Origin: an uncultured Chloroflexia bacterium
Lineage (GTDB): Bacteria; Chloroflexota; Dehalococcoidia; GIF9; UBA5629
Assembly (NCBI GenBank): GCA_963705905.1
Contig: OY970123.1
Span: forward strand, 839,921 to 903,920
Length of the DNA: 64,000 nucleotides
Direction: 5' to 3'
This document shows positions 5,985 through 54,993 of the stretch, piece after piece; position 1 is the first letter of the stretch, and each line of letters starts with the position of its first letter. Under the pieces are notes generated by a model. It worked only from the letters and a program-made list of their open reading frames with translations. It made no database searches and was not told the origin of the DNA. A program made the position numbers and the translations under genes.

Positions 5985-8222
<2,238 letters not shown>

Positions 8223-8359
8223 TTAATTAATTTTAACGGACTCCGATTGATTTTGGTAACAGTGGGAGACTACTTAAACTTTTCTGATAACTTTTCATAT
8301 AATCATCCCCCTCTTCACCTCCCCAAATGCTGATTCACAATCAACCCGATTTTTGATTT

Positions 8360-8435
8360 TGGTGGAGATAGGGGGATTCGAACCCCCGACCTCTGCGATG
8401 CGAACGCAGCGCTCTCCCAATTGAGCTATATCCCC
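8360..8435 (-). tRNA. tRNA-Ala (anticodon CGC)
   Basis: Reverse complement GGGGATATAGCTCAATTGGGAGAGCGCTGCGTTCGCATCGCAGAGGTCGGGGGTTCGAATCCCCCTATCTCCACCA; G3:U70 pair, anticodon loop TTCGCAT, TPsiC arm GGTTCGAATCC, encoded CCA. Confidence 0.85.
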
Positions 8436-8485
8436 GGAAAGGTTTTTATACTAACAAAGGCCTCTGGATAGTGTCAAGGTTTCTG

Positions 8486-8541
8486 CTATAAAAAAGCCCG
8501 CCGTTTTTATCGCCGAAACTTATAGACCGGACGATAAAACA
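8486..8541 (-). terminator. rho-independent terminator candidate downstream of RRM gene
   Basis: 12-bp stem gcccgccgtttt / aaaacagcgggc (1 mismatch) followed on the minus strand by a T-run (plus-strand aaaaaa at 8483-8488). Confidence 0.4.
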
Positions 8542-8579
8542 GCGGGCAATTCTATCGTTTTAATTTCAATTAAGCGACT

Positions 8580-8891
8580 TCAGCGTCTGCGCTGCGGCTT
8601 ACGTTTGCCGATAAACCTGCCGTCCGACCTTCCGCCGCCCCTGCTATCGGTACGGGGCCTGGCCTCGCTGATATCCAGCGTGCGCTCCTTGAGCATTTTA
8701 CCTTTCAGGCCGGTTATGGCCGCCTGACCTTCTTCTTTGTTGGCCATTTCCACAAAAGCAAAGCCCCTGGGCTGGCCGCTGAATTTATCCTTTATCAGGG
8801 CCACGGATGTCACTTCGCCGAAAGCAGCGAATTCAGCTTTCAGGTCTTCTTCAGTCACATCGCGTGCCAGATTTCCCACAAAAATATTCAT
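8580..8891 (-). CDS. RRM-type RNA-binding protein with Gly/Arg-rich tail
   Basis: MNIFVGNL (RNP2) and RGFAFVEM (RNP1) motifs; start moved to the internal ATG preceded by a ggagg RBS. Confidence 0.8.
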   Translation of the reverse strand: MNIFVGNLARDVTEEDLKAEFAAFGEVTSVALIKDKFSGQPRGFAFVEMANKEEGQAAITGLKGKMLKERTLDISEARPRTDSRGGGRSDGRFIGKRKPQRRR

Positions 8892-8992
8892 TTGTATTCC
8901 TCCAATAAGTAATGAAGACAAAGTAATACCGTCTGCCGGCATGCCTATTATTCGATACGGGCTCCGGCCCGTATCGAACAGTACGAAGGATT

Positions 8993-18363: not shown

Positions 18364-18530
18364 ATTCAGTCGCCTGCGGCCGTTAAATAGCCTGAACGAG
18401 TCAAGACGGGTAAAGTATACGCCTTGATCAGACGGCTATCCAGTTCTCGGTGGGATCGGCTGGCTGACCGAATACAACCCACAGCCGAATCAACATATAT
18501 GGGAATATAGGTTTTTGGGGCATCAAGGCG

Positions 18531-18752
18531 ATGCTCGACCAGTTAGGTGTCGAGACAGGCTTAACCTGTAACCCTCACACCTTTAGGCGCAAGTTTGCGG
18601 TGCTGTTAAGGAAGGCCGGTGTAGATACCATGACTATCAAAGAATTCGGTCGATGGGAGAGCTTGGAAATGGTACAGCGATATACCAGATCATTCAGCTT
18701 CCAGGATAGTATGAAGTTTTATAAGTCGCCTTTAGAAACATTACTTGATTAA
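18531..18752 (+). pseudogene. tyrosine recombinase/integrase C-terminal fragment
   Basis: 73 codons ending with HTFRRKFAVLL...GRWESLEMVQRYTR, the box II/catalytic Tyr region of phage integrases. The N-terminal ~300 codons are absent (only 167 nt separate it from the radical SAM start). Confidence 0.6.
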
Positions 18753-19076
18753 TATACTGGGTCTTGATACATCAAAATTGTTCAGGGCATTCTAATGGAG
18801 ACCACCCACAAGTCTTTGAAGAGTAAAAAGGCCGGCTTGAGTAGGTCTCTTCCTTATTCGCTTTGCCAGATTTAAGTTTAGATTTTGAGACAAACTGGAA
18901 TTGAGTCTCTTGTTTCATGGGATAATTTGAACATGGATTTATATTACCGTAGAGCCATAACCAGTAACATATATTCTGTTTATCACACAATAGTAATCAA
19001 CCTCCCATCATTAACCGCATGTATTATACACCTATGCACAACCGATGGGAATAGGGTTTCGACATATCCCTATTCT

Positions 19077-19150
19077 TGGAAATGGTACAGAGGTATACTC
19101 GTTCTTTCAGCTTTCAGGATAGTATGAGATTTTACAGATCACCGCTTTAA
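19077..19150 (+). repeat. second, diverged copy of an integrase 3-prime end
   Basis: About 75% nt identity to 18664-18745; encodes EMVQRYTRSFSFQDSMRFYRSPL-stop. Preceded by a perfect 8-bp-stem hairpin gaataggg-tttcgacata-ccctattc at 19050-19075. Confidence 0.5.
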
Positions 19151-19261
19151 CGTATGTCATTCTCACAACGCTGTGAATAGCATTTCTGGGACGTAAAGCT
19201 TGGCAGGTGGGTGAATCCAGTGTTATTGTCATTACAGTTAGCGTTATATATGGTAGGGCAT

Positions 19262-19540
19262 ATGGGGGATATGATGCCGGAGTTGAATAACTACTGTCCA
19301 GAATGCTATCAGAATATCCAGTACGGCATACAGAAATGCCCATATTGTGGATGTCCGATTAATTGGGGGATACCGCCGCAAGAGATAGTCCAACCACCGG
19401 TGCATATATCGCAGCAACAGGCAGCTGCATCGAAAAGAACCGGAGGGGGTATCATATGTGTTCATTGTGGCAATTCAATAATACCTGTAAAAAGCAATTT
19501 TGGTTGTGTTTTTTTAATTTGTTCGGCATCGTTTACTTAA
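19262..19540 (+). CDS. small zinc-ribbon protein, possibly continued by ORF 19363-19602 through a T7 frameshift
   Basis: CPECY...CPYCGCP ribbon, then CVHCG. A second frame encodes a TM helix and CPVCKKK; the frames meet at a t7 run near 19483. Confidence 0.3.
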   Translation: MGDMMPELNNYCPECYQNIQYGIQKCPYCGCPINWGIPPQEIVQPPVHISQQQAAASKRTGGGIICVHCGNSIIPVKSNFGCVFLICSASFT

Positions 19541-19847
19541 TTTACTATGCCATCAAAAAAGCCGATATTTGCCCTGTATGTAAGAAGAAGGCCTACAAAT
19601 AGCCCTGGGGAAAAACCTTTGTTTAGCCAACCATATAAACAGTGGCAACTGGCACAAAGGTAAGGGTAGATTGGAAATATGCCAAGAAAAACAATCTCCG
19701 CTATATGCAAATATTGAGCTATTTTATGAGAGCTTATCTCAAATTGCTTCTGTCTGGGGTTTGGTGATTACATTGGGGAAGGCAATATGTCGATTTCAAT
19801 GTGAGCGGTAAAATGGGGAATTCATTCCGGACTTGATAGCGTCTGGT

Positions 19848-20852
19848 TTATCTATATGGGTTAAGGTCTACTTTGTATACAGCATCGGTAATCTCAGAAA
19901 GCTTTTGCTCAAACTCAGCGGCTGTCGGCTCTTTCAAATCTATGTGCTTCAAATCCTTCAGTAGTTCTGGCTTTTCACAGTCATCCACTAATATGGGTAT
20001 GACTGTGAATTTCTCGTTTAAGGCTTTTGCAAGTGCTGTGTTCATCTCTTTGGTGCACCAATCTGATGAACTGTAACGGCTCTCAAGAAGTATCAAGCAA
20101 GCATCACATTCCTTAAAGCCTTCTCCTATTTTGCCCACCACTGAATCGCCAGCTTTAATCTCCCATTTATCGAACCACACTTCCATCCCCTGCTCTGACA
20201 ATCGCTGTGCAATAGTATCTGCTACTTGCTCCGCTTTGCTCAACTTCTTGTAAGATAGAAAAACTTTGTGGCCTCTAGGTCTTTGGCCTGGCTGACCACT
20301 TATAGCCCTTATCCTATTTGCTAAGTCTTCCCATGCTTGCTTCTTGACCCAGGAAGCAATATTACTCACAACAAGCTGCTGCGACCGAGATAAGGAATCC
20401 CACGATATGTCTACTTGACTTATCTGACCTGGTGCCGCTTGAAAGGCATAACGGATGCTCAGTTGACTGGGCATTCCTATAGGTGGCTTAGTCAAATAAT
20501 GAACTAAGATTTCATCAATGGTAGGCACAATTTTTAGAGACTCGCGGTTGTCCACATCTATCTCGTACGATCGTAAGAGCGGAGCAACCACTTTCTCCAA
20601 AGTCCCCAACTTTTGGCAAATTTCAAGCGGCAATTGTGTCCAGTCAGCCAACCTGATGCGCCCAGATAATTGAACAACGTCAAAGAAATTCCCATCATCT
20701 TCCTGGGTTAGCGGAGTATAAAATATGTTTAGCTCATTCTGTCGCCCAGCCCAACTTCTTATATAGAAATTGTACCCAAATTCCAGGTCTAAGATTCTCC
20801 TAGACGAAGCAGCCTTCCTACTCTCCACCGAGCCTGAACTTCCTGAACTCAT
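19848..20852 (-). CDS. TIR-domain protein with uncharacterised ~190-aa N-terminal domain
   Basis: C-terminal KVFLSYKK ... DACLILLESRYSSSDWCTKEMNTALA ... IPILVDD matches the TIR beta-A, catalytic-Glu and beta-D regions; N-terminal half has no motif I can assign. Confidence 0.75.
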   Translation of the reverse strand: MSSGSSGSVESRKAASSRRILDLEFGYNFYIRSWAGRQNELNIFYTPLTQEDDGNFFDVVQLSGRIRLADWTQLPLEICQKLGTLEKVVAPLLRSYEIDVDNRESLKIVPTIDEILVHYLTKPPIGMPSQLSIRYAFQAAPGQISQVDISWDSLSRSQQLVVSNIASWVKKQAWEDLANRIRAISGQPGQRPRGHKVFLSYKKLSKAEQVADTIAQRLSEQGMEVWFDKWEIKAGDSVVGKIGEGFKECDACLILLESRYSSSDWCTKEMNTALAKALNEKFTVIPILVDDCEKPELLKDLKHIDLKEPTAAEFEQKLSEITDAVYKVDLNPYR

Positions 20853-21070
20853 CTTTCAAAGTTCCCGTTATATAGCTACATCATGCAGATCGTGCTTTAA
20901 AACTTCCTGTATTATACTGCTGCTAATGTTGTGTTATCCATTAAACTATCCGTCAATTTATATAATTGTTAGGGTAACTTAATATAGAGAATGTGATATT
21001 TACCCATTTTAACTGAGGATAGATCGTTATTCCTTATTAGGGTGGTCCATATAACTAAGCAGGATTATTG

Positions 21071-21625
21071 CTATCTATTAAGCCACGGGCAACTATTGAT
21101 GGGCAACTGATCATAGAATTCTGCAAATGACGGGCTGTTGTTTTTTATATGGCCTGCTCTACATTTAACCAGGAGATCAACACCATCTGTTGTCTCATGA
21201 TACATTCGCAAATGTTTCTTAATGACAGTTTTGCCTTTACGACCTTCATAACTAATTGTTATTTCCTTCACTTTATATTCACACTGGTTAACAATTTCTC
21301 TGTCAGCTAAAATCCAGTTCTCGATCGTCCGGTCAGTCACTCCAATGATGATAGTATCTACTATTCCCAGTTGCTCCAGTAGAGAATGGAGCGAAGAGGA
21401 TATTTCCTGTGATGTTTCTCGCCGATCCTCCCTGTCAATTACAACGATAATTGGATAGTATCTGTTATTAAAAAGTCTGCAATGGGTCTCAATACGTTCT
21501 GCAATTGCCGATAGCGACACATTGTGGCCATTACACTCAAGTCTTTGCACAGGACGGCCAGGACACGATTTTTGAATAAACTTCTGTTCAAGGTGTCCGT
21601 CGACGAGAAATGCCGCTTTATTCAT
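21071..21625 (-). CDS. Toprim-like small protein (DUF4276/RloB/AriB-type partner)
   Basis: 184 aa; LVDGHLEQKF (h-x-EG-x-x-E) and IVVIDREDRRE acidic motifs as in OLD-family Toprim domains. Start overlaps the upstream ATPase stop by 8 nt. Confidence 0.55.
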   Translation of the reverse strand: MNKAAFLVDGHLEQKFIQKSCPGRPVQRLECNGHNVSLSAIAERIETHCRLFNNRYYPIIVVIDREDRRETSQEISSSLHSLLEQLGIVDTIIIGVTDRTIENWILADREIVNQCEYKVKEITISYEGRKGKTVIKKHLRMYHETTDGVDLLVKCRAGHIKNNSPSFAEFYDQLPINSCPWLNR

Positions 21626-22973
21626 TGTTCAAGCTACCAGATAGATAGTAATAGCCTAATCCAAAACCAGTTTTCTGTATCTCTTTAGTTAGGGCTGCGG
21701 CATTAGAAACGCGTTTAGCTGTCGTTTTTCCATTAGCACAAGAGATAACGATGATTTCCTTTGGTACCGCATTATTTAGTAAGGTCTCACTATGCGTGGA
21801 CATAAGGATGAATCTATCTTTTTTCATGTGCTCCCGCATAATCAATATTATTTCAGATAGCATATGTGGATGAAGATAATTCTCGGGTTCCTCAATAGCG
21901 AACATATTTTGATTTGTTAAAATGATTGTTATCAATGCTATCCATTTCACTGTACCATCCGACATGGAAGAAAGAGGGAGTATAGTGGGCTTACCGGTAC
22001 CTTTTAGAGTAACTCGAACCTGCAATTGCTGGTCAAATGGATTGTTCGAAACAACGATATTAGATATCCATTCGTTTGCAAGCTGCGTGTATCGCAAAAT
22101 ATTTGCTGTAGAAGCATCACTTCTGGGGATTGCATGCCGATAGGTTGGCAGATACCTATAGGTTGGCAGATAATCGTACTTTTGCCGGTTGACGCCCTCG
22201 TATTTTTGTATCGCGTACAATGTCGAATATAAACCAGAGCCATCTTTACTGACACCTGCTTTTTTAGCACTATCATCTGGCATCTTTGCTTTAGATGGTT
22301 CAATGTTATAGACTTCACCACCTCTGATGTCATTATTAATGGGATAATAGAAGTCACGAATAATCATACTCAAGACAGTAATGACGCTTTGGTCTGGATC
22401 CAGGTTGTCGAGATATTGTATTATCCTTCTTTTAATATCCGCTTTACCATATTTACGTCTCGCATCATAAGGATTATTTAATTCCTTTATTTTTTCGTTG
22501 ATAGCGGAGATTGTAGGCTTGGATTTTGAATTATCATCTACATTTAACGCAATTGCTAAATCGTAATCGCTACTTCGTATCTTGTTTATAGAGTCGACTG
22601 CTCTTAGTTTTAACGATAACTTTTGTTCCGAATAAATTATTGGCTCTCCAGATACGCGTAAAAGTATTCTGAACGAATATTGATAGTATAAATACTTTCT
22701 AGCCTCAAGTTTCACCGTGCCAGTTATCGTTGCACTGATGTTATCCTGATATTCTTTTTCTCCTATTTTCCGAAATATAGTACCTGCACCTCCAGATTTA
22801 CTGATGGCATCTGAAATATGCATATACTGGAGATAACCGAGGAATTCGAAAAAAGAAATAATATTTGTCTTGCCTGATCCATTGGGTCCAACAAGGATAT
22901 TTAGACCCGATTTCAGATCCATTTCGAATTTATGAAGAGTCTTGAAACCGTTTACTTTAATATGTTTAATCAT
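21618..22973 (-). CDS. split ABC-type ATPase (AAA_21/AAA_15 family; OLD/AbiLi/AriA-like)
   Basis: Walker A GPNGSGKT near the N-terminus, long insert, then IEEPENYLHPHM and H-loop LMSTHSE at the C-terminus; 451 aa. Confidence 0.8.
   Translation of the reverse strand: MIKHIKVNGFKTLHKFEMDLKSGLNILVGPNGSGKTNIISFFEFLGYLQYMHISDAISKSGGAGTIFRKIGEKEYQDNISATITGTVKLEARKYLYYQYSFRILLRVSGEPIIYSEQKLSLKLRAVDSINKIRSSDYDLAIALNVDDNSKSKPTISAINEKIKELNNPYDARRKYGKADIKRRIIQYLDNLDPDQSVITVLSMIIRDFYYPINNDIRGGEVYNIEPSKAKMPDDSAKKAGVSKDGSGLYSTLYAIQKYEGVNRQKYDYLPTYRYLPTYRHAIPRSDASTANILRYTQLANEWISNIVVSNNPFDQQLQVRVTLKGTGKPTILPLSSMSDGTVKWIALITIILTNQNMFAIEEPENYLHPHMLSEIILIMREHMKKDRFILMSTHSETLLNNAVPKEIIVISCANGKTTAKRVSNAAALTKEIQKTGFGLGYYYLSGSLNNE
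22139..22174 (-). repeat. in-frame 18-bp tandem duplication inside the ATPase gene
   Basis: tatctgccaacctatagg / tatctgccaacctatcgg encodes YLPTYR YLPTYR. Confidence 0.6.
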
Positions 22974-23340
22974 TTAAAATTCCCGAAGAACCTATATTCG
23001 TGTGCATAATTACCATAATATTCGATATTATATCACTGTGTCATTGCGGATTACAGTGTATATTTTATCATTTGTAGTCATAGATTCGAATCAGGTTTAA
23101 CCTTACTAAGCTGCTCAAGCACTACTAATATCCTTATAGAAACCTGATTCCTTCAAGGCTAAGGCAATATTAAGGGTAAGAAGCCGGGGCATGACTGGGC
23201 AGTCCTTAGCTTAGATTATGAAAGGAAAAGGAAGCCAAAGAAGACTATAAAATAGTTAAGCAAATAATTACGATGGGGATGAAGCTAAAGTGTTAAGCAA
23301 ATCAGGAAAACTCAGCAATCAACGCAATCGTGGATTGAAG

Positions 23341-23416
23341 TGGTGCCCCCAAGGGAATTCGAATCCCTGTGTCCAGCTTGAAAGGCTGGTGTCCTAGGCC
23401 TCTAGACGATGGGGGC
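23341..23416 (-). tRNA. tRNA-Glu (anticodon TTC)
   Basis: Reverse complement GCCCCCATCGTCTAGAGGCCTAGGACACCAGCCTTTCAAGCTGGACACAGGGATTCGAATTCCCTTGGGGGCACCA; anticodon loop CTTTCAA, acceptor GCCCCCA/TGGGGGC, encoded CCA. Confidence 0.9.
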
Positions 23417-23422
23417 ATTGAA

Positions 23423-24436
23423 TTAAGGATAGATGGGCAGGGCTTCAAGGCCCGCCGTCTCGGGAAAACCAAACATTATATTCATATTTTGAATAGCTTG
23501 TCCAGCCGCGCCCTTGACCAGGTTATCGATACAGCTTATAACTACCACGCGGCCTGTCTTCTGGTGCATAGCAGGGTATATCAGGCACAGGTTGCTGCCC
23601 CATGTCTGCTTTGTTTCAGGGGGCTGCTGCACCATGCGGGTGAAAGGCTCCTTGCGGTAGTAGTCGGCGAAGACCTTATCCAGCTCTTCTTTCCCGCCGC
23701 TGAGCTTCCCCATTTTGGCCCTGGCATAACACGTGCTCAAAATCCCGCGCGTCATGGGAACAGTGTGCGGAACGAAGGTCACCGATACGCTGCCCGAAGG
23801 GAAGAGGTTATCCAGCTCCTGTAGCATTTCCGGCTGATGCCTGTGGCCGCTCAAACTATAGGCACGCACGTTATCGCTGGCTTCGGAGAAATGCGTGGGC
23901 AGGGTCAGCGTCCGTCCCGAGCCTGAGATGCCCGACTTGCTATCGACAATCAAATCCGGCTCCACAAGGTCGAGAGCGACCAGGGGAGCGAGGGCAAGTA
24001 TGGCCGAGGTCGGATAACAGCCGGGATTGGCCACCAGGCTAGCTCCCGCTATCTTGCTGCGGTGCAATTCGGGAAGACCGTAGACAGCGGACTGCAGCAG
24101 CTCGGGCGCCGGATGAGTGAATTCATACCATTCGGGATAGCGGGCAGGGTCCTTCAGACGGAAATCGGCGCTAATATCTACTACGCGGATACCTTTCTTT
24201 AGCAGGGGCATCACCACTTCGGCGCTGGCCTTATGAGTCATGGCCGAGAAGGCCACATCCACCTTGCCCTCCATTTCCGCGGTTATAGTAAGCCCTGTGC
24301 ATTCCAGGTGGGGGAAAACCTCGCCCAGTTTTTGCCGGCGGCGCTGCGGCCTGTGACCGATACCAGCTCCACCTGAGGGTGCTGCCACAATATACGCGCC
24401 AGCTCCACGCCTGCGTATCCCGTCACATTAATAATG
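23423..24436 (-). CDS. argC: N-acetyl-gamma-glutamyl-phosphate reductase, apparent frameshift in an A5/T5 run near 24330
   Basis: GCYPTSAILALAPL active-site motif in the main ORF. The true N-terminus MNKIKAGIINVTGYAGVELAR...TGRSAAGK is upstream in another frame; one missing A in aaaaa restores KKLGEVFPHL. Confidence 0.8.
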
Positions 24437-24480
24437 CCAGCTTTTATTTTATTCATAGCCTTTTCCCACCGCCTTAGACT

Positions 24481-25100: not shown

Positions 25101-26389
25101 CTAGCGCTCCACTACCATGGCAATGCCCATGCCGCCGCCGATGCACATGGTCGCCAGGCCGTGTTTAAGGTTGCGGCGCTCCATCTCATGCACCAGCGTT
25201 ACCAGCACACGCGCGCCGGTGGCGCCGATGGGGTGCCCCAGTGAAATGCCGCTGCCGTGTACGTTGGTCTTATCCAGGTCAAAACCCAGCTCTTTAACAC
25301 ATCCAAGGGCCTGTGATGCAAAAGCCTCGTTGAGTTCGACGACGTCGAGGTCTTTGACCGACAATTTGGCCTTCTCCAGGGCCTTTTGACAGCCGGGACA
25401 ACGCCCAGTCCCATGTAGGCAGGGTCCACGCCGCCGGACGCATACGACTTGATCTTTGCCATGGGCTTCAAGCCCATCTCAGCGGCTTTTTTAGCCGACA
25501 TCAATAATACCGCGCCTGCGCCATCGTTGATGCCGGATGCATTGCCGGCCGTTACGGTCCCGTCTTTCTTGAAAGCCGGCGCCAGCCTGGCCATCTTCTC
25601 CAGCGTGGTCTCCATCGGCCGTTCATCCGTATCGAAAACGACCGGGTCACCTTTCTTTTGCGGCGAGACCACCGGGACGATCTCCTGTTTGAAGGTGCCG
25701 TCTTTACAGGCAGCCAAGGCCCGCTGGTGGCTCATCAGTCCCAGCTTGTCCTGCTCTTCACGCGTGATGCCATATTTGGCAGCGATATTTTCAGCCGTCA
25801 CGCCCATGTGATAGCCGTAGTAAAGTTCCCATAGCCCGTCATAGACCATCAGGTCGAAAACTTCACCTTTGCCCGTCAGGTCCATGCGGTAGCCCCACCT
25901 GGCACGCGTCATGGCATAGGGAGCGTTGCTCATGCTCTCCATACCGCCTGCGACCACGACCTCGGCGTCGCCCAGTAAAATGCTCTGAACCCCGGTAACT
26001 ATCGCTTTGAGTCCGGAGCCGCAAATCTTGTTGACCGTGAAGCCGGGCGTTTCCTTGGGCAGCCCGGCATAGATCATGGCCTGCCTGCCCGGGTTCTGTC
26101 CCTGTGCTGCCTGCAGCACGTTGCCCATGATAACCTCGTCCACCTGGACCTCTTTAAGGTTATCCGGCCAATCATAGTATTTCTGCTCAAGCTCGCAGAG
26201 CCCACCGCCCGCCAGCGCTTTCGGGCCATATTCGGCCAGCCTGGCTCCCGTTTTAGGCCTTAAGCCAGCCCTTTTCAACACATCTTTGATAACGATTGAG
26301 CCCAGTTTGGTGGCAACGACATCCTTAAGCCCGCCGCCGAACGTACCGATAGCGGTCCTTACTCCGTTTACTATGACAACTTCGGACAT
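25101..26389 (-). CDS. acetyl-CoA C-acetyltransferase (thiolase), apparent frameshift in an A4 run near 25395
   Basis: N-terminal 396-aa ORF has catalytic Cys (NKICGSG). The C-terminal part with [15 protein letters not shown] and CIGGGMG is in ORF 25101-25364 in another frame. Confidence 0.85.
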
Positions 26390-45995: not shown

Positions 45996-47365
45996 CTATT
46001 GTTTTGGCTGAAAGGCTTCTATCTTTAAATGACTAATTTTAATCAATTGAAGGACTGCATAATCCTTTTGCATATCAAAATAAAAATCCCCACGAAATGG
46101 AGGATCGATAGAATGATCGATTATTTCATGGCAAGTTGCCATCATAAATGGAATTAACTCATTACAGATACGACAAGGTAGTCCAATTACTTGACCATCC
46201 GGATGCTGCTCCATTACATGTATATAGTAATCACGAATCTCCCCACTAGCGATTAACTCACCACAACTGCATTTCAGTCGACTATTTTTGTCAGCAACGG
46301 TGGCTTCGTTAAGATAATTTGGACCATACCTAAAATCCCATAGCGAAGCCAGTTTGGATTCAGTCTGCCCAGACGTTAGTTGGTAACTCCAATTGCCACG
46401 AGATAAACTCATGCGAAGCGATTTCCAAATGTTCCATGCATTCGGTTTCAAATTTTGTCCAGCCACTTTAGCAGTAAAAATACGTGCGGCAATACCAGCA
46501 GCAAGATCAGCTATCTGGATACCAATCGAACTAGCGGATATTTCTTCAGAACACGCAATAAAATTATGCATCGGCGATGGCGATCTGGATAAAAATTCAT
46601 AAGTAAAATCTAGTATTTCGCCAAATTGGGTGTCCTGATCTCTTATTAATCGAGCCTTTAAATTGTGTGATCCGAGAGCAGAATCCAGAAAAATCAATGA
46701 GGGGAAAAATGCAGTAACCTGACAATTGGACAAATGTATATTTTTAGGAGCGCCTTCTAAACGCTCTCCAAAACGGTAAATATCATCCAACCCAGACATA
46801 ATGACATGGGCTATATGAACGACGCGTTGATCTGGATGCAAACTTAATTGTCTACTAAGAATAAGGCCAATACGTTTAAGCTCGGGAACATCATCGGAAT
46901 GACACGCCCGTAAAAACCTTGTCAATAATTCGCTGGAAATTGATGAATAGATAACATTATGGAAAAAACGCCTGAACTCTATAGACATCATATACCTATC
47001 TACCTTCGGGTTGTGATCGGGATCTAAATAGGTTGAGGCAATCCGGACACAAATCTCAAATTTTTTCTCAACAATACTTATATAGATAGTGGTTCCAGCT
47101 TCATATACTAGCTGCATGATCTTTGACCAACGTCTCCTTCCTCTGGAAGATTGCCATAACTTAACAGAACTCAATTCGTAGGATAGTGGAAGACATTCTT
47201 TCTCCAAAAAAGAGATAGCTGGGATGCAAGTAGAGTTTCTTGATTCTTCGTTAACAACACCCAGGCATATACGAAAAATAAATCAGTTTTAGAGAGTAAA
47301 TCGGAGCCGGTATTGCCGGATTCATCGCAATAGATTGTTGCTATCTCAGCAGTTATAGGCCTCAT
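45996..47365 (-). CDS. DUF3800-family protein with Cys-rich C-terminal extension; apparent frameshift in a T6 run near 47195
   Basis: N-terminal IYCDESGNTG motif in ORF 47171-47365, QIADLAAGIA motif in ORF 45996-47207. Adding one T to tctcttttttgg merges the frames. AT-rich. Confidence 0.5.
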
Positions 47366-47395
47366 ATACAGCGCAAAGTATTAGATGCAAAATAA

Positions 47396-48004
47396 TTACG
47401 ATTTTTGATCATTCGATATGGACTCTAAAAAGCTGGCTAAACTAAGTGCGAGATCCACATAACTGGCAGCTTGTTCCCAAGATATATTGAATTGAGCCTC
47501 ATGAACAGCCTGATTCCGCAGTTTCCGAAGACGATCATACAAGTCTCCAGTTCCATACGGAAGTTCGCCTGATAATGTTAGTTTATGCAATACATCGTGT
47601 TCTGCCTGCATACCCTTCGATGGTATTTCATATTTCAACGCCAATTTCCCTAAAGCATTTTCTACCGAGCGCCAAGCCTCAGCTACTGCGGCTCTAGGAT
47701 AATCATAGGCAAGATCAATTAGATTCTGGGATGGAGAAACAGAGATTTCGATTGGCTGCCTAGCAGATGGCGTTGGAGGCAATTTCAATGCCTTTGCCTT
47801 ATCCTCGGCGAATCTGAGATCACGGCGAAATTTGATTCCCAAATCCTTATAACGCAATTCCTCAATAGCTGCAATAGCTTGGGCAAGTGGTTTCCTAAAA
47901 ATCAATACTATTGTCAGGACTGTCAAAGGCCAAGCTAGTACCGACACGAAATTCAAAATTAAATGTGCAATTCCCATATTAAATCCACAACTTAATAGAT
48001 TCAA
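47396..48004 (-). CDS. membrane-anchored DUF4145 (HEPN-like) protein
   Basis: N-terminal TM helix, C-terminal LRKLRNQAVHEAQFNISWEQA matching the DUF4145 R-x4-H signature. Confidence 0.45.
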   Translation of the reverse strand: MNLLSCGFNMGIAHLILNFVSVLAWPLTVLTIVLIFRKPLAQAIAAIEELRYKDLGIKFRRDLRFAEDKAKALKLPPTPSARQPIEISVSPSQNLIDLAYDYPRAAVAEAWRSVENALGKLALKYEIPSKGMQAEHDVLHKLTLSGELPYGTGDLYDRLRKLRNQAVHEAQFNISWEQAASYVDLALSLASFLESISNDQKS

Positions 48005-48029
48005 ATAATATGACCCGGTAGGTTAAGAT

Positions 48030-48842
48030 TTATATGTTCTCAATTTGATTCGCTGCTTTCGCTAGCTTGTCCTTGGTCTGGCCAAGGTTAACTACGGATT
48101 TTAGATGATTCTGCCTTTTCTCACGAGCGATATACCAGTCTTCAAATAATCTTTCAATCAGACCAATTAGCAATTCCGCTTCATTGGGTTCAATATCTAT
48201 AATAATATCTACCTTTTTTGCCATATGAGCGCCAATATTACCTACCTTGCGAACCGCATCTATCGCATCCCACGTAAGCGGATCCACTTTATCCTGGATC
48301 GCCTCTATTTCTTTTTTTAGAGATGGACGTTCCAGTCCCCAATAATCACGTATCATGCCTTGCAAGCAGCGCCGTGCCAAAGTTGCTGACGATTTCGGGC
48401 TCAATTCTTTGATAAGACATGCCTCCCGATAATCAGCCAAAATAGGGGTGGGTATATAATCAGGAAAAATTTTTGCCCCAGAAGGTGGGACCAATTGCCA
48501 TGTATGCAACTCTTCTCCACTATGAGGTCTTGATCCGCTATAGCGCTCCACCTTAGAAAGACGAATTGTTAAAGTGAACCTCCTACAATCAGGATTTGGG
48601 CAAACGACAAACGCCCAATTTAAACATCGCTCTCCATCGGAATTCTCAATGTCTAAAAATACCTCACCTGTGGTCCTATCTTCATGTGTAACCGTTGTAG
48701 GTCTATTGCAATAAGGACAGGTCCAAGGGAACTTTCTGGTTGCAGGCGGAGGTATCAGGAACCCATTCATAGTTGAATTATACACCATGCGATAATCGAC
48801 AAAAAGATAAAGAATGAATAAAATCAGGATGCTGATAGCCAT
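48030..48842 (-). CDS. zinc-ribbon + DUF4145 (HEPN-like) protein
   Basis: CPYCNRPT...CPNPDCRRF ribbon; DUF4145 core LARRCLQGMIRDY ... AIDAVRKVGNIGAHM. Confidence 0.5.
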   Translation of the reverse strand: MAISILILFILYLFVDYRMVYNSTMNGFLIPPPATRKFPWTCPYCNRPTTVTHEDRTTGEVFLDIENSDGERCLNWAFVVCPNPDCRRFTLTIRLSKVERYSGSRPHSGEELHTWQLVPPSGAKIFPDYIPTPILADYREACLIKELSPKSSATLARRCLQGMIRDYWGLERPSLKKEIEAIQDKVDPLTWDAIDAVRKVGNIGAHMAKKVDIIIDIEPNEAELLIGLIERLFEDWYIAREKRQNHLKSVVNLGQTKDKLAKAANQIENI

Positions 48843-53934: not shown

Positions 53935-54993
53935 CTATTTGTAAAACCTCAATGATTTAATCTCTTGAATTATTGGCTGTGGCCTTCGCCCGCCACCCTT
54001 GCTCTTTGGGACATGCTTAATGCCAGTGCGTCTTTCCGTTAAGAGCCTACGCTTGTGTAATCTTGAATCAGCCTGTTTCCTTTCCCTATCTGTAAACCTG
54101 ACATATGGCAAAGGTGAAACATCAAACGAAGCTCTTGGCAATGTCAATTTAGCCATTTCGGGAGTGCATCTTATCAATACTTCCCAATCTTTATATGGGA
54201 ATTGTATTTGAGCCTTATTTGCAGGCGTAGTGCCGATCGTTTCATGTGGTCGGAAATAGTTATAATTTACTAGGAAGCCGTCAAGTAGCAACTGCGCCGA
54301 TTCAGGGCTTTTAAGGTCTCTCATGACTTTTGTGCGTTCTTTGATAGTGCCCTGCATCCGCTCGATGATGTTGTTGTTCGGCCTAGCTGTGAATTTCTTG
54401 ACTTGCAAATGCTTTGCTTTGTCTCCAAAGGTATGCCGGATGCCGTAGACATATGCTTCCATATGGTCGGTCATAATAACTTTAGGTATACGACCAGTTC
54501 GAGCATAGGCTTCCTTCATAACCTCGTGGACATCTTCTACTCTGCGAGTCAGAGATAAAAACGAAGCTATCAAGAACCTCGTCTTGACATCAATCACATC
54601 AAGAAGCCAATATTGTTTCCCTGCTACATTTATTACGGTCTCATCGGCTAACCAAACATAACCTACTTCTGGCTTATATCGATTGGTTATATTGACCGCA
54701 TCTTTGGTAAACCTTTCTACCCAGTTATAGATTGCAAAATCGGATAGGTCTAAACCATATATTTGTTTTAGTTCTTGCTTAATGTCATTGACCGACATGC
54801 CCTTGTAAAACATCGAGACCGCCGCCGAGACCGCACTGGCGGGCGTTTTCATGTGGATTAACGCATCTTTAAGATTGAACCTGCGCTTGCAGGATCGGCA
54901 CAGGTAGTATTGCTCACCTACGTTAGTGCCATCCTTCACGATGTCATCTGAATTGCAGTATTTGCAGGCAATCTCGCTCACGAGAAATTCCAT
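53935..54993 (-). CDS. DDE transposase, IS6/IS26-like with N-terminal zinc ribbon
   Basis: CKYCNSDDIVKDG...YLCRSCKRRF ribbon; DDE region WLADETVINVAGKQYWLLDVIDVKTRFLIASFLSLTRR ... VIMTDHMEAY ... NNIIERMQGTIKER. Confidence 0.7.
   Translation of the reverse strand: MEFLVSEIACKYCNSDDIVKDGTNVGEQYYLCRSCKRRFNLKDALIHMKTPASAVSAAVSMFYKGMSVNDIKQELKQIYGLDLSDFAIYNWVERFTKDAVNITNRYKPEVGYVWLADETVINVAGKQYWLLDVIDVKTRFLIASFLSLTRRVEDVHEVMKEAYARTGRIPKVIMTDHMEAYVYGIRHTFGDKAKHLQVKKFTARPNNNIIERMQGTIKERTKVMRDLKSPESAQLLLDGFLVNYNYFRPHETIGTTPANKAQIQFPYKDWEVLIRCTPEMAKLTLPRASFDVSPLPYVRFTDRERKQADSRLHKRRLLTERRTGIKHVPKSKGGGRRPQPIIQEIKSLRFYK

Follow-up and report, generated by a model that had tools for sequence, protein, structure and literature searches.

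An ABC-ATPase/DUF4276 pair and a TIR-domain gene adjoining in a tRNA-Glu islet of a Dehalococcoidia genome: probably two separate candidate defence modules

In a stretch of 64,000 nucleotides from an uncultured Chloroflexia bacterium placed in the Dehalococcoidia (contig OY970123.1, positions 839,921 to 903,920, hereafter the window), three co-directional minus-strand genes lie in an AT-rich islet beside a tRNA-Glu gene. They encode an ABC-type ATPase, a small Toprim-like partner of the DUF4276 family and a protein with an N-terminal domain (N-domain) followed by a TIR domain. An earlier note on this DNA had suggested that the three form one defence module, in which the TIR protein would be an effector gated by the ATPase/Toprim pair, and had kept as a fallback that the TIR gene is a neighbouring single-gene system. 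We consider, with a probability of about 0.8, that the locus consists of two functionally independent defence modules in a small islet at a tRNA-Glu integration hotspot; the adjacency of the pair and the TIR gene is defence-island clustering and not an operonic partnership. We favour this reading because none of seven independent pair loci has a TIR gene and none of about 16 independent TIR loci has the pair, because a related organism carries the TIR gene at the same site without the pair, because a promoter-like site of its own and a distinct GC content at third codon positions (GC3) mark out the TIR gene, and because the best PADLOC matches are separate, HEC-01A/B for the pair and TIR-only for the third protein.

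21618 to 22973, minus strand: ABC-type ATPase (AAA_21/AAA_15), 451 aa, HEC-01A-like by Pfam, PADLOC and an alignment of 31 homologues
21071 to 21625, minus strand: DUF4276 partner, putatively of the Toprim superfamily, 184 aa, HEC-01B-like, its start overlapping the ATPase stop by 8 nt
20853 to 21070, minus strand: spacer separating the TIR gene from the pair, 218 nt, AT-rich (GC 0.33)
20940 to 20911, minus strand: promoter-like site TGGATA-18-TATAAT, a consensus match only, function not implied
19848 to 20852, minus strand: stand-alone N-domain-TIR protein, 334 aa, from a family of about 53 clusters

The three open reading frames (ORFs) lie exactly where the earlier note had placed them: the ATPase stop and the DUF4276 start share ATGAATAA, an 8-nt overlap at 21618-21625, and the DUF4276 and TIR genes are 218 nt apart, as read off the sequence. 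Its picture of an AT-rich islet between integrase remnants and tRNA-Glu agrees with GC and GC3, with a Phage_integrase match and with ARAGORN. Pfam and PADLOC profile searches gave family matches for all three proteins, and ATPase-Toprim pairs and TIR NAD hydrolases (NADases) are indeed established types of anti-phage component. The single three-gene module found no support, since the pair and the TIR gene do not co-localise outside the window's organism, and it is the fallback of a neighbouring single-gene system that the neighbourhoods support.

Distribution of the pair and of the TIR family

For the TIR family, 43 loci were fetched via metagenome, GTDB-genome and exact-protein look-ups (L-numbers below denote fetched homologue loci); about 16 remain as non-redundant loci that extend 1 kb or more upstream. 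The pair was sought in the fetched loci by tblastn and with profile hidden Markov models from the ATPase and DUF4276 alignments. We found the pair near the TIR family in L001-L003 only, which are 100%-identical copies of the window's organism, and at none of the roughly 16 independent loci. The pair was followed in the same way at seven independent loci of its own (L125/126, L127/128, L129, L130, L131/132, L133 and L134), where the ATPase is 38-68% identical to the one studied here. The DUF4276 gene lies directly downstream of the ATPase gene at all seven, although it is disrupted in L133, and the 8-nt overlap is present in every homologue locus for which gene coordinates are listed; a TIR gene was detected at none of the seven by tblastn or profile search. 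A scan of IMG/VR found the pair on two viral contigs only and the TIR family on no viral contig, and a comparison with PHROGs added nothing.

The TIR gene keeps varied company. It follows an MmeI-like type IIG restriction-modification gene and an M78 peptidase gene in L113, and it lies in a serine-recombinase element with a HEPN_AbiU2 gene in L119. In L122 (1097-3795) a TIR homologue of 64% identity is followed, after 96 nt, by a GmrSD_N (DUF262) gene on the same strand, within an element that also holds an integrase gene, a Mu-like capsid gene and tRNA-Met; here too the TIR gene travels in defence or mobile surroundings. Housekeeping settings also occur, between a methyltransferase gene and a MiaB-like gene in L116 and next to mutL in L117. 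Altogether, known defence or mobile genes stand beside the TIR gene in 4 of about 9 well-flanked contexts. All-versus-all clustering of the ORFs flanking TIR homologues gave no conserved partner; the neighbours that seemed to be shared were rejected as partners, being repeat-rich surface proteins (Flg_new_2, CARDB, CBM_X2) or the syntenic MiaB-like housekeeping gene. The retrieved loci of one TIR homologue, P0009, have GmrSD_N beside the TIR gene and no ATPase pair; P0009 and an ATPase homologue, P0091, are also listed on contigs of 16,408 and 16,409 bp, neither of which is among the P0009 loci retrieved.

The most direct evidence against a three-gene system comes from a related organism, on the 160-kb contig L025. 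Here argC is followed by a tRNA-Glu gene 92.5% identical to that of the window, a 630-nt spacer and the TIR orthologue, and no pair intervenes. The TIR gene can therefore occupy this chromosomal site apart from the pair. The orthologue itself (7983-8951) has two in-frame stops, at the W168 position and at a Glu near residue 313, and is a decaying pseudogene. Within the window, base composition also sets the genes apart, with GC3 values of 0.34 and 0.38 for the pair and 0.44 for the TIR gene, six to ten points higher, in comparison to 0.66-0.71 in the flanking genes.

Some points weigh against two independent defence modules. The neighbourhoods sampled come from only a few dozen metagenomic contigs, most of them short. 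Nothing resembling a terminator was detected in the sequence that separates the pair from the TIR gene, so that their co-transcription here may be possible. Both modules are anti-phage candidates by prediction, and in the one published test, in E. coli, HEC-01 failed to protect against the phages used (bioRxiv 10.1101/2024.01.29.577857).

The two modules and what they may do

20301 to 20795, minus strand: N-terminal domain of the TIR protein, structured residues ~20-184, two halves of beta-sheet plus long helix
19908 to 20264, minus strand: TIR_2 domain, residues 197-315 (3.1e-27, 95.9 bits against a cutoff of 28)
20046 to 20048, minus strand: codon of the catalytic Glu E269 within WCTKEM, invariant in 33 family members

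Full-length members of the TIR family fall into about 53 clusters of 45-76% identity, all of about 320-335 aa and of one common architecture. The few named records are metagenome-assembled genomes of Dehalococcoidia or Chloroflexia, and the family is apparently small and confined to Chloroflexota. The earlier note was right in seeing a C-terminal TIR domain with its catalytic Glu: E269 falls on the corresponding Glu in the alignment to the AbTIR NAD+ hydrolase (8g83/7uwg, E ~5e-9), and by domain score and the Glu at the WxxxE position the protein would class as a TIR NADase, with NAD+ cleavage predicted. Past TIR_2, the C-terminal DLNPYR (19848-19865) is near-invariant family-wide, including in relatives near the detection limit, with N331 and Y333 invariant, so that this tail may be functional, perhaps in autoinhibition or oligomerisation.

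No motif had been recognised in the N-domain, and we likewise found no relative of its ~190 aa in Pfam, NCBIfam or the PDB; the PADLOC PDC-S66 profile does not reach it. Its topology resembles the platform of the major histocompatibility complex. A profile search of 1.84 billion representative proteins returned just 15 matches, eleven of them TIR-family members or fragments thereof. In the four remaining weak matches (E 1e-6 to 3e-4), TIR_2 is present in three; the fourth, P0251 (180 aa), has no Pfam match, but its last stretch of sequence is the one with which its relatives begin their TIR region. The two complete weak relatives, P0250 and P0252, retain the C-terminal LNPYR. The fifteenth match, P0248, is a repeat protein of 976 aa with 11 short matched stretches and no Pfam match, and looks spurious. 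Even among relatives close to the limit of detection, the N-domain occurs solely as a fusion with this TIR, and it is therefore a family-specific module.

We propose that the N-domain would be a sensor or oligomerisation unit and that the TIR domain, AbTIR-like and with an intact catalytic Glu, would be an NAD+-consuming effector. Most likely the protein is a self-contained sensor-NADase acting via NAD+ depletion; direct depletion is favoured over signalling to a second protein because no conserved partner was found. The alternative that survives best, though we hold it to be unlikely, is that the protein makes a signal in the manner of ThsB for an effector encoded elsewhere, or has a non-defence role related to NAD in Chloroflexota. 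In favour of this alternative are its closest solved relatives, enzymes of the AbTIR type, which form cyclic ADP-ribose isomers, as well as weak ThsB/ThcB4 profile matches and the stable position of the gene among housekeeping genes in one lineage, beside the MiaB-like gene (L007, L008, L027, L084). Against it, no neighbourhood was found to hold a SLOG, SIR2, Macro or other conserved partner, the NCBIfam Thoeris score is 46.6 against a cutoff of 220 bits, the gene has the defence or mobile neighbours described above, and the L025 pseudogene fits a dispensable accessory gene.

In the pair, the ATPase has Pfam matches to AAA_21 (2.6e-25), AAA_15 (1.9e-16) and SMC_N (4.8e-11). Motif conservation in the family alignment is far above chance, and the following residues are invariant among the 31 homologues: G29, N31, G32, G34, K35 and T36 of Walker A (K35 codon at 22869-22871, minus strand), Q117 of the Q-loop, S338-D339-G340-T341 of a signature-like motif (MSDGT, 337-341), E361-E362-P363-E364-N365 and H368 of the Walker B/D-loop FAIEEPE, and H394 of the H-loop. 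Since these residues are invariant, the ATPase looks catalytically competent. The earlier note had correctly recognised an ABC-type ATPase from its Walker A and H-loop; the C-terminal motif that it took for a signature is conserved, but IEEPE belongs to the Walker B/D-loop and the signature-like motif is S338-D339-G340-T341. The insert region of the ATPase holds an in-frame 18-nt tandem duplication (22134-22169, repeat family D6) that encodes YLPTYR-YLPTYR.

The partner scores slightly below the DUF4276 cutoff (2.9e-6, 28.1 against 30.2 bits), and a precomputed PF14103 match is on record for the majority of its 65 homologues. Its subfamily invariants, V8-x-G10-x-x-E13, D64-x-E66-x-R68 and E102-N103-W104-I105-x-x-D108, are conserved far above chance. 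The Toprim-like motifs reported earlier lie in conserved residues of a DUF4276 protein, with two corrections: the acidic residue that comes first is Asp (VDGxxE), and motif two reads DxE in place of DxD. An AlphaFold2 model of the partner (predicted local distance difference test score 92.1) has the order b1-a1-b2-a2-b3-a3-b4, with acidic residues immediately after b1 and at the end of b3. DUF4276 has been assigned to the Toprim superfamily, with MAD4 named as a homologue, and the placement of the acidic residues in the model corresponds to the Toprim arrangement given there for DUF4276 (PMC12065111). Our own fold searches are only partly supportive of a Toprim fold: Foldseek with the model gave no significant match in the PDB, and the partner profile gave chance-level matches only against PDB sequences.

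By analogy with PARIS, OLD and Gabija, this translationally coupled pair of HEC-01 type may work as a sensor and a nuclease. An ATPase oligomer would sense a phage cue of infection and would retain or license its small Toprim-like nuclease partner; on triggering, that nuclease would cut nucleic acid (tRNA or DNA). We find it rather less probable still than a signalling TIR protein that the pair serves mobile elements as a maintenance, addiction or DNA-processing module and that only the TIR gene is defensive. Such a role would account for the lack of protection by HEC-01 in the published assay and for the frequent nearness of the pair to integrases and tRNA genes (integrase and tRNA-Pro in L125, integrase and tRNA-Arg in L127), as for Bro-N next to the pair in L134 and its presence on the two viral contigs. 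However, a mobile-element location is typical of defence genes as well, an ABC ATPase with a Toprim protein is defensive in PARIS, OLD, Gabija and AbiL, resistance by MADS needs both mad3 and mad4 according to the literature, and HEC-01 was discovered embedded in Hma defence systems.

A genuine three-gene system, with the pair sensing infection and gating the TIR protein as an added NADase effector, we regard as very improbable: the genes are co-directional in one AT-rich islet, the TIR gene is just 218 nt from the pair and no terminator-like site intervenes, and the arrangement is identical in three assemblies (though all the same organism at 100% identity), but the pair loci and TIR loci elsewhere, L025, the separate promoter-like site and the differing GC3 speak against it, and no PADLOC multi-gene model joins the pair and TIR. 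Just as little credit goes to functional coupling in this one Dehalococcoidia lineage alone, by a HEC-01-type pair inserted directly upstream of the resident N-domain-TIR gene; if true, it would act by read-through co-transcription or by an ATPase complex licensing the TIR NADase, as an ABC-ATPase/Toprim/TIR system put together only lately and so far without a counterpart elsewhere. A likelier reading is that the N-domain-TIR family represents a single-gene defence protein not described before, with a sensor domain to which no relatives are known.

With two independent modules, a false claim of a new system is averted and the three-gene combination becomes an accident of defence-island packing. 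A clean, intact pair from an uncultured Dehalococcoidia is added to a candidate family that lacks a demonstrated phenotype, and its place in a natural defence islet gives circumstantial support for a defence role of HEC-01. The work also delimits a compact TIR family of ~330 aa, whose N-domain offers a defined target for the study of infection sensing by TIR effectors.

The islet and its surroundings

18364 to 23340: AT-rich foreign islet of ~5 kb between a radical-SAM gene and tRNA-Glu/argC, recognised by GC contrast
23341 to 23416, minus strand: tRNA-Glu(UUC), by ARAGORN (Rfam tRNA 61 bits)
18531 to 18752, plus strand: C-terminal remnant of a tyrosine integrase, 73 aa (Phage_integrase 6e-10, profile positions 115-168 of 172 only)
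19075 to 19143: second, decayed copy of the integrase remnant, 69 nt (direct repeat D1, 81% identity)

The tRNA-Glu gene, with its 3' end pointing toward the islet, is the chromosomal anchor, and the integrase remnant lies at the far edge. The ATPase gene lies 367 nt from the tRNA with no further gene upstream of it. The GC content of the three genes is 0.37, 0.41 and 0.44, in comparison to 0.53-0.57 in the flanking genes. To find the bounds of the island we scanned the window for att-like direct copies of the 3' end of tRNA-Glu and found none, and an Rfam scan of the islet for structured RNA gave the tRNA as its sole match. Between the TIR gene and the integrase remnants, a 109-aa ORF (19211-19540, plus strand) with sub-cutoff double-zinc-ribbon matches (DZR 1.7e-4) is probably the leftover of a decayed element.

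The window matches a public 2.47-Mb metagenome contig (L001). Across 18.8 kb the two differ solely by two single-base deletions in the window, at 24333 and 25387, which split argC (ORFs 23423-24388 and 24283-24456) and a thiolase gene (ORFs 25199-26389 and 25101-25364); these are probably assembly errors and not real pseudogenes. A second AT-rich islet (45996-48842, GC 0.39-0.41) holds three co-directional minus-strand ORFs. The first, of 270 aa (48030-48842), matches DUF4145 (5.9e-11) and, in PADLOC, the single-gene system PD-T7-4 (4.1e-10); the two ORFs downstream of it, of 202 and 403 aa, have no Pfam or PADLOC match. In a third AT-rich stretch, at 53-56 kb, an insertion-sequence-type transposase gene is found at 53935-54993 (DDE_Tnp_IS240/rve with an InsA zinc ribbon).

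Comparison with known systems

In the description by Payne et al. (bioRxiv 10.1101/2024.01.29.577857), HEC-01 pairs its ABC ATPase with a TOPRIM protein that has the metal-binding site of OLD. The best PADLOC match of the ATPase is HEC-01A PDLC04176 (3.4e-43, 146 bits), and HEC-01A accounts for its eight top-scoring profiles and for 9 of the 25 among the matches listed; the partner's only PADLOC matches are seven HEC-01B profiles, the best of them weak (5.8e-7, 27.5 bits). As in HEC-01, there are two genes, for an ABC-type ATPase and a small, Toprim-like DUF4276 partner, but here the pair lies in a tRNA-linked islet of a Dehalococcoidia metagenome-assembled genome and is not embedded in an Hma system. 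On these profile matches we class the pair as a new member of HEC-01, a candidate already catalogued in PADLOC.

Other systems in which an ABC ATPase is combined with a TOPRIM protein, among which MADS3-4 and AbiL are grouped with PARIS in the literature, fit less well. PARIS offers the likely template of a sensor scaffold that releases a nuclease, with an AAA_15/AAA_21 ABC ATPase followed by a separate small Toprim-superfamily protein. However, the partner here is a DUF4276 protein of 184 aa while AriB is a DUF4435 protein of ~35 kDa, and no DUF4435 or AriB match to the 184-aa protein was found in Pfam or PADLOC; the AriA matches of the ATPase in PADLOC look generic and not specific to AriA, the profile length and matched span being those of Pfam AAA_21/AAA_15. 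The best NCBIfam matches of the pair are to MADS, in which MAD3 is an AAA-family ATPase and MAD4 a DUF4276 homologue, but we rejected MADS on score (MAD3 73.5 against 420 bits, MAD4 19.4 against 160 bits). The mandatory MAD6-8 and methylase genes are absent from the islet, where the pair has just tRNA-Glu/argC and the TIR gene beside it. The ATPase and the Toprim-like protein are encoded separately and not fused, on which ground OLD class 1/2 and Gabija were set aside; the GajA matches of the ATPase are weak (1e-14 to 5e-15), and the islet has no UvrD-like (GajB) gene. AbiL was rejected too: AbiLi matches the ATPase at 2.8e-24, yet the partner has no RloB/AbiLii match. For Menshen (NsnABC), NsnB matches the ATPase weakly (1.5e-14), there is no NsnA and no NsnC-N, no third gene lies upstream of the ATPase, and the partner is a bare 184-aa DUF4276 domain.

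For the TIR protein we rejected Thoeris, given a ThcB4 score of 46.6 against 220 bits and no ThsA (SIR2/Macro-SLOG) partner in any neighbourhood. The profile of PDC-S66, a single-gene TIR candidate of PADLOC, matches the TIR region at 1.9e-16, but the match is limited to profile positions 139-240 of 282 and leaves the N-domain uncovered. The nearest likeness is to AbTIR, to whose NAD+ hydrolase the catalytic Glu of the TIR_2 domain aligns, and the family is a variation on the known sensor-TIR theme, with a novel N-domain.

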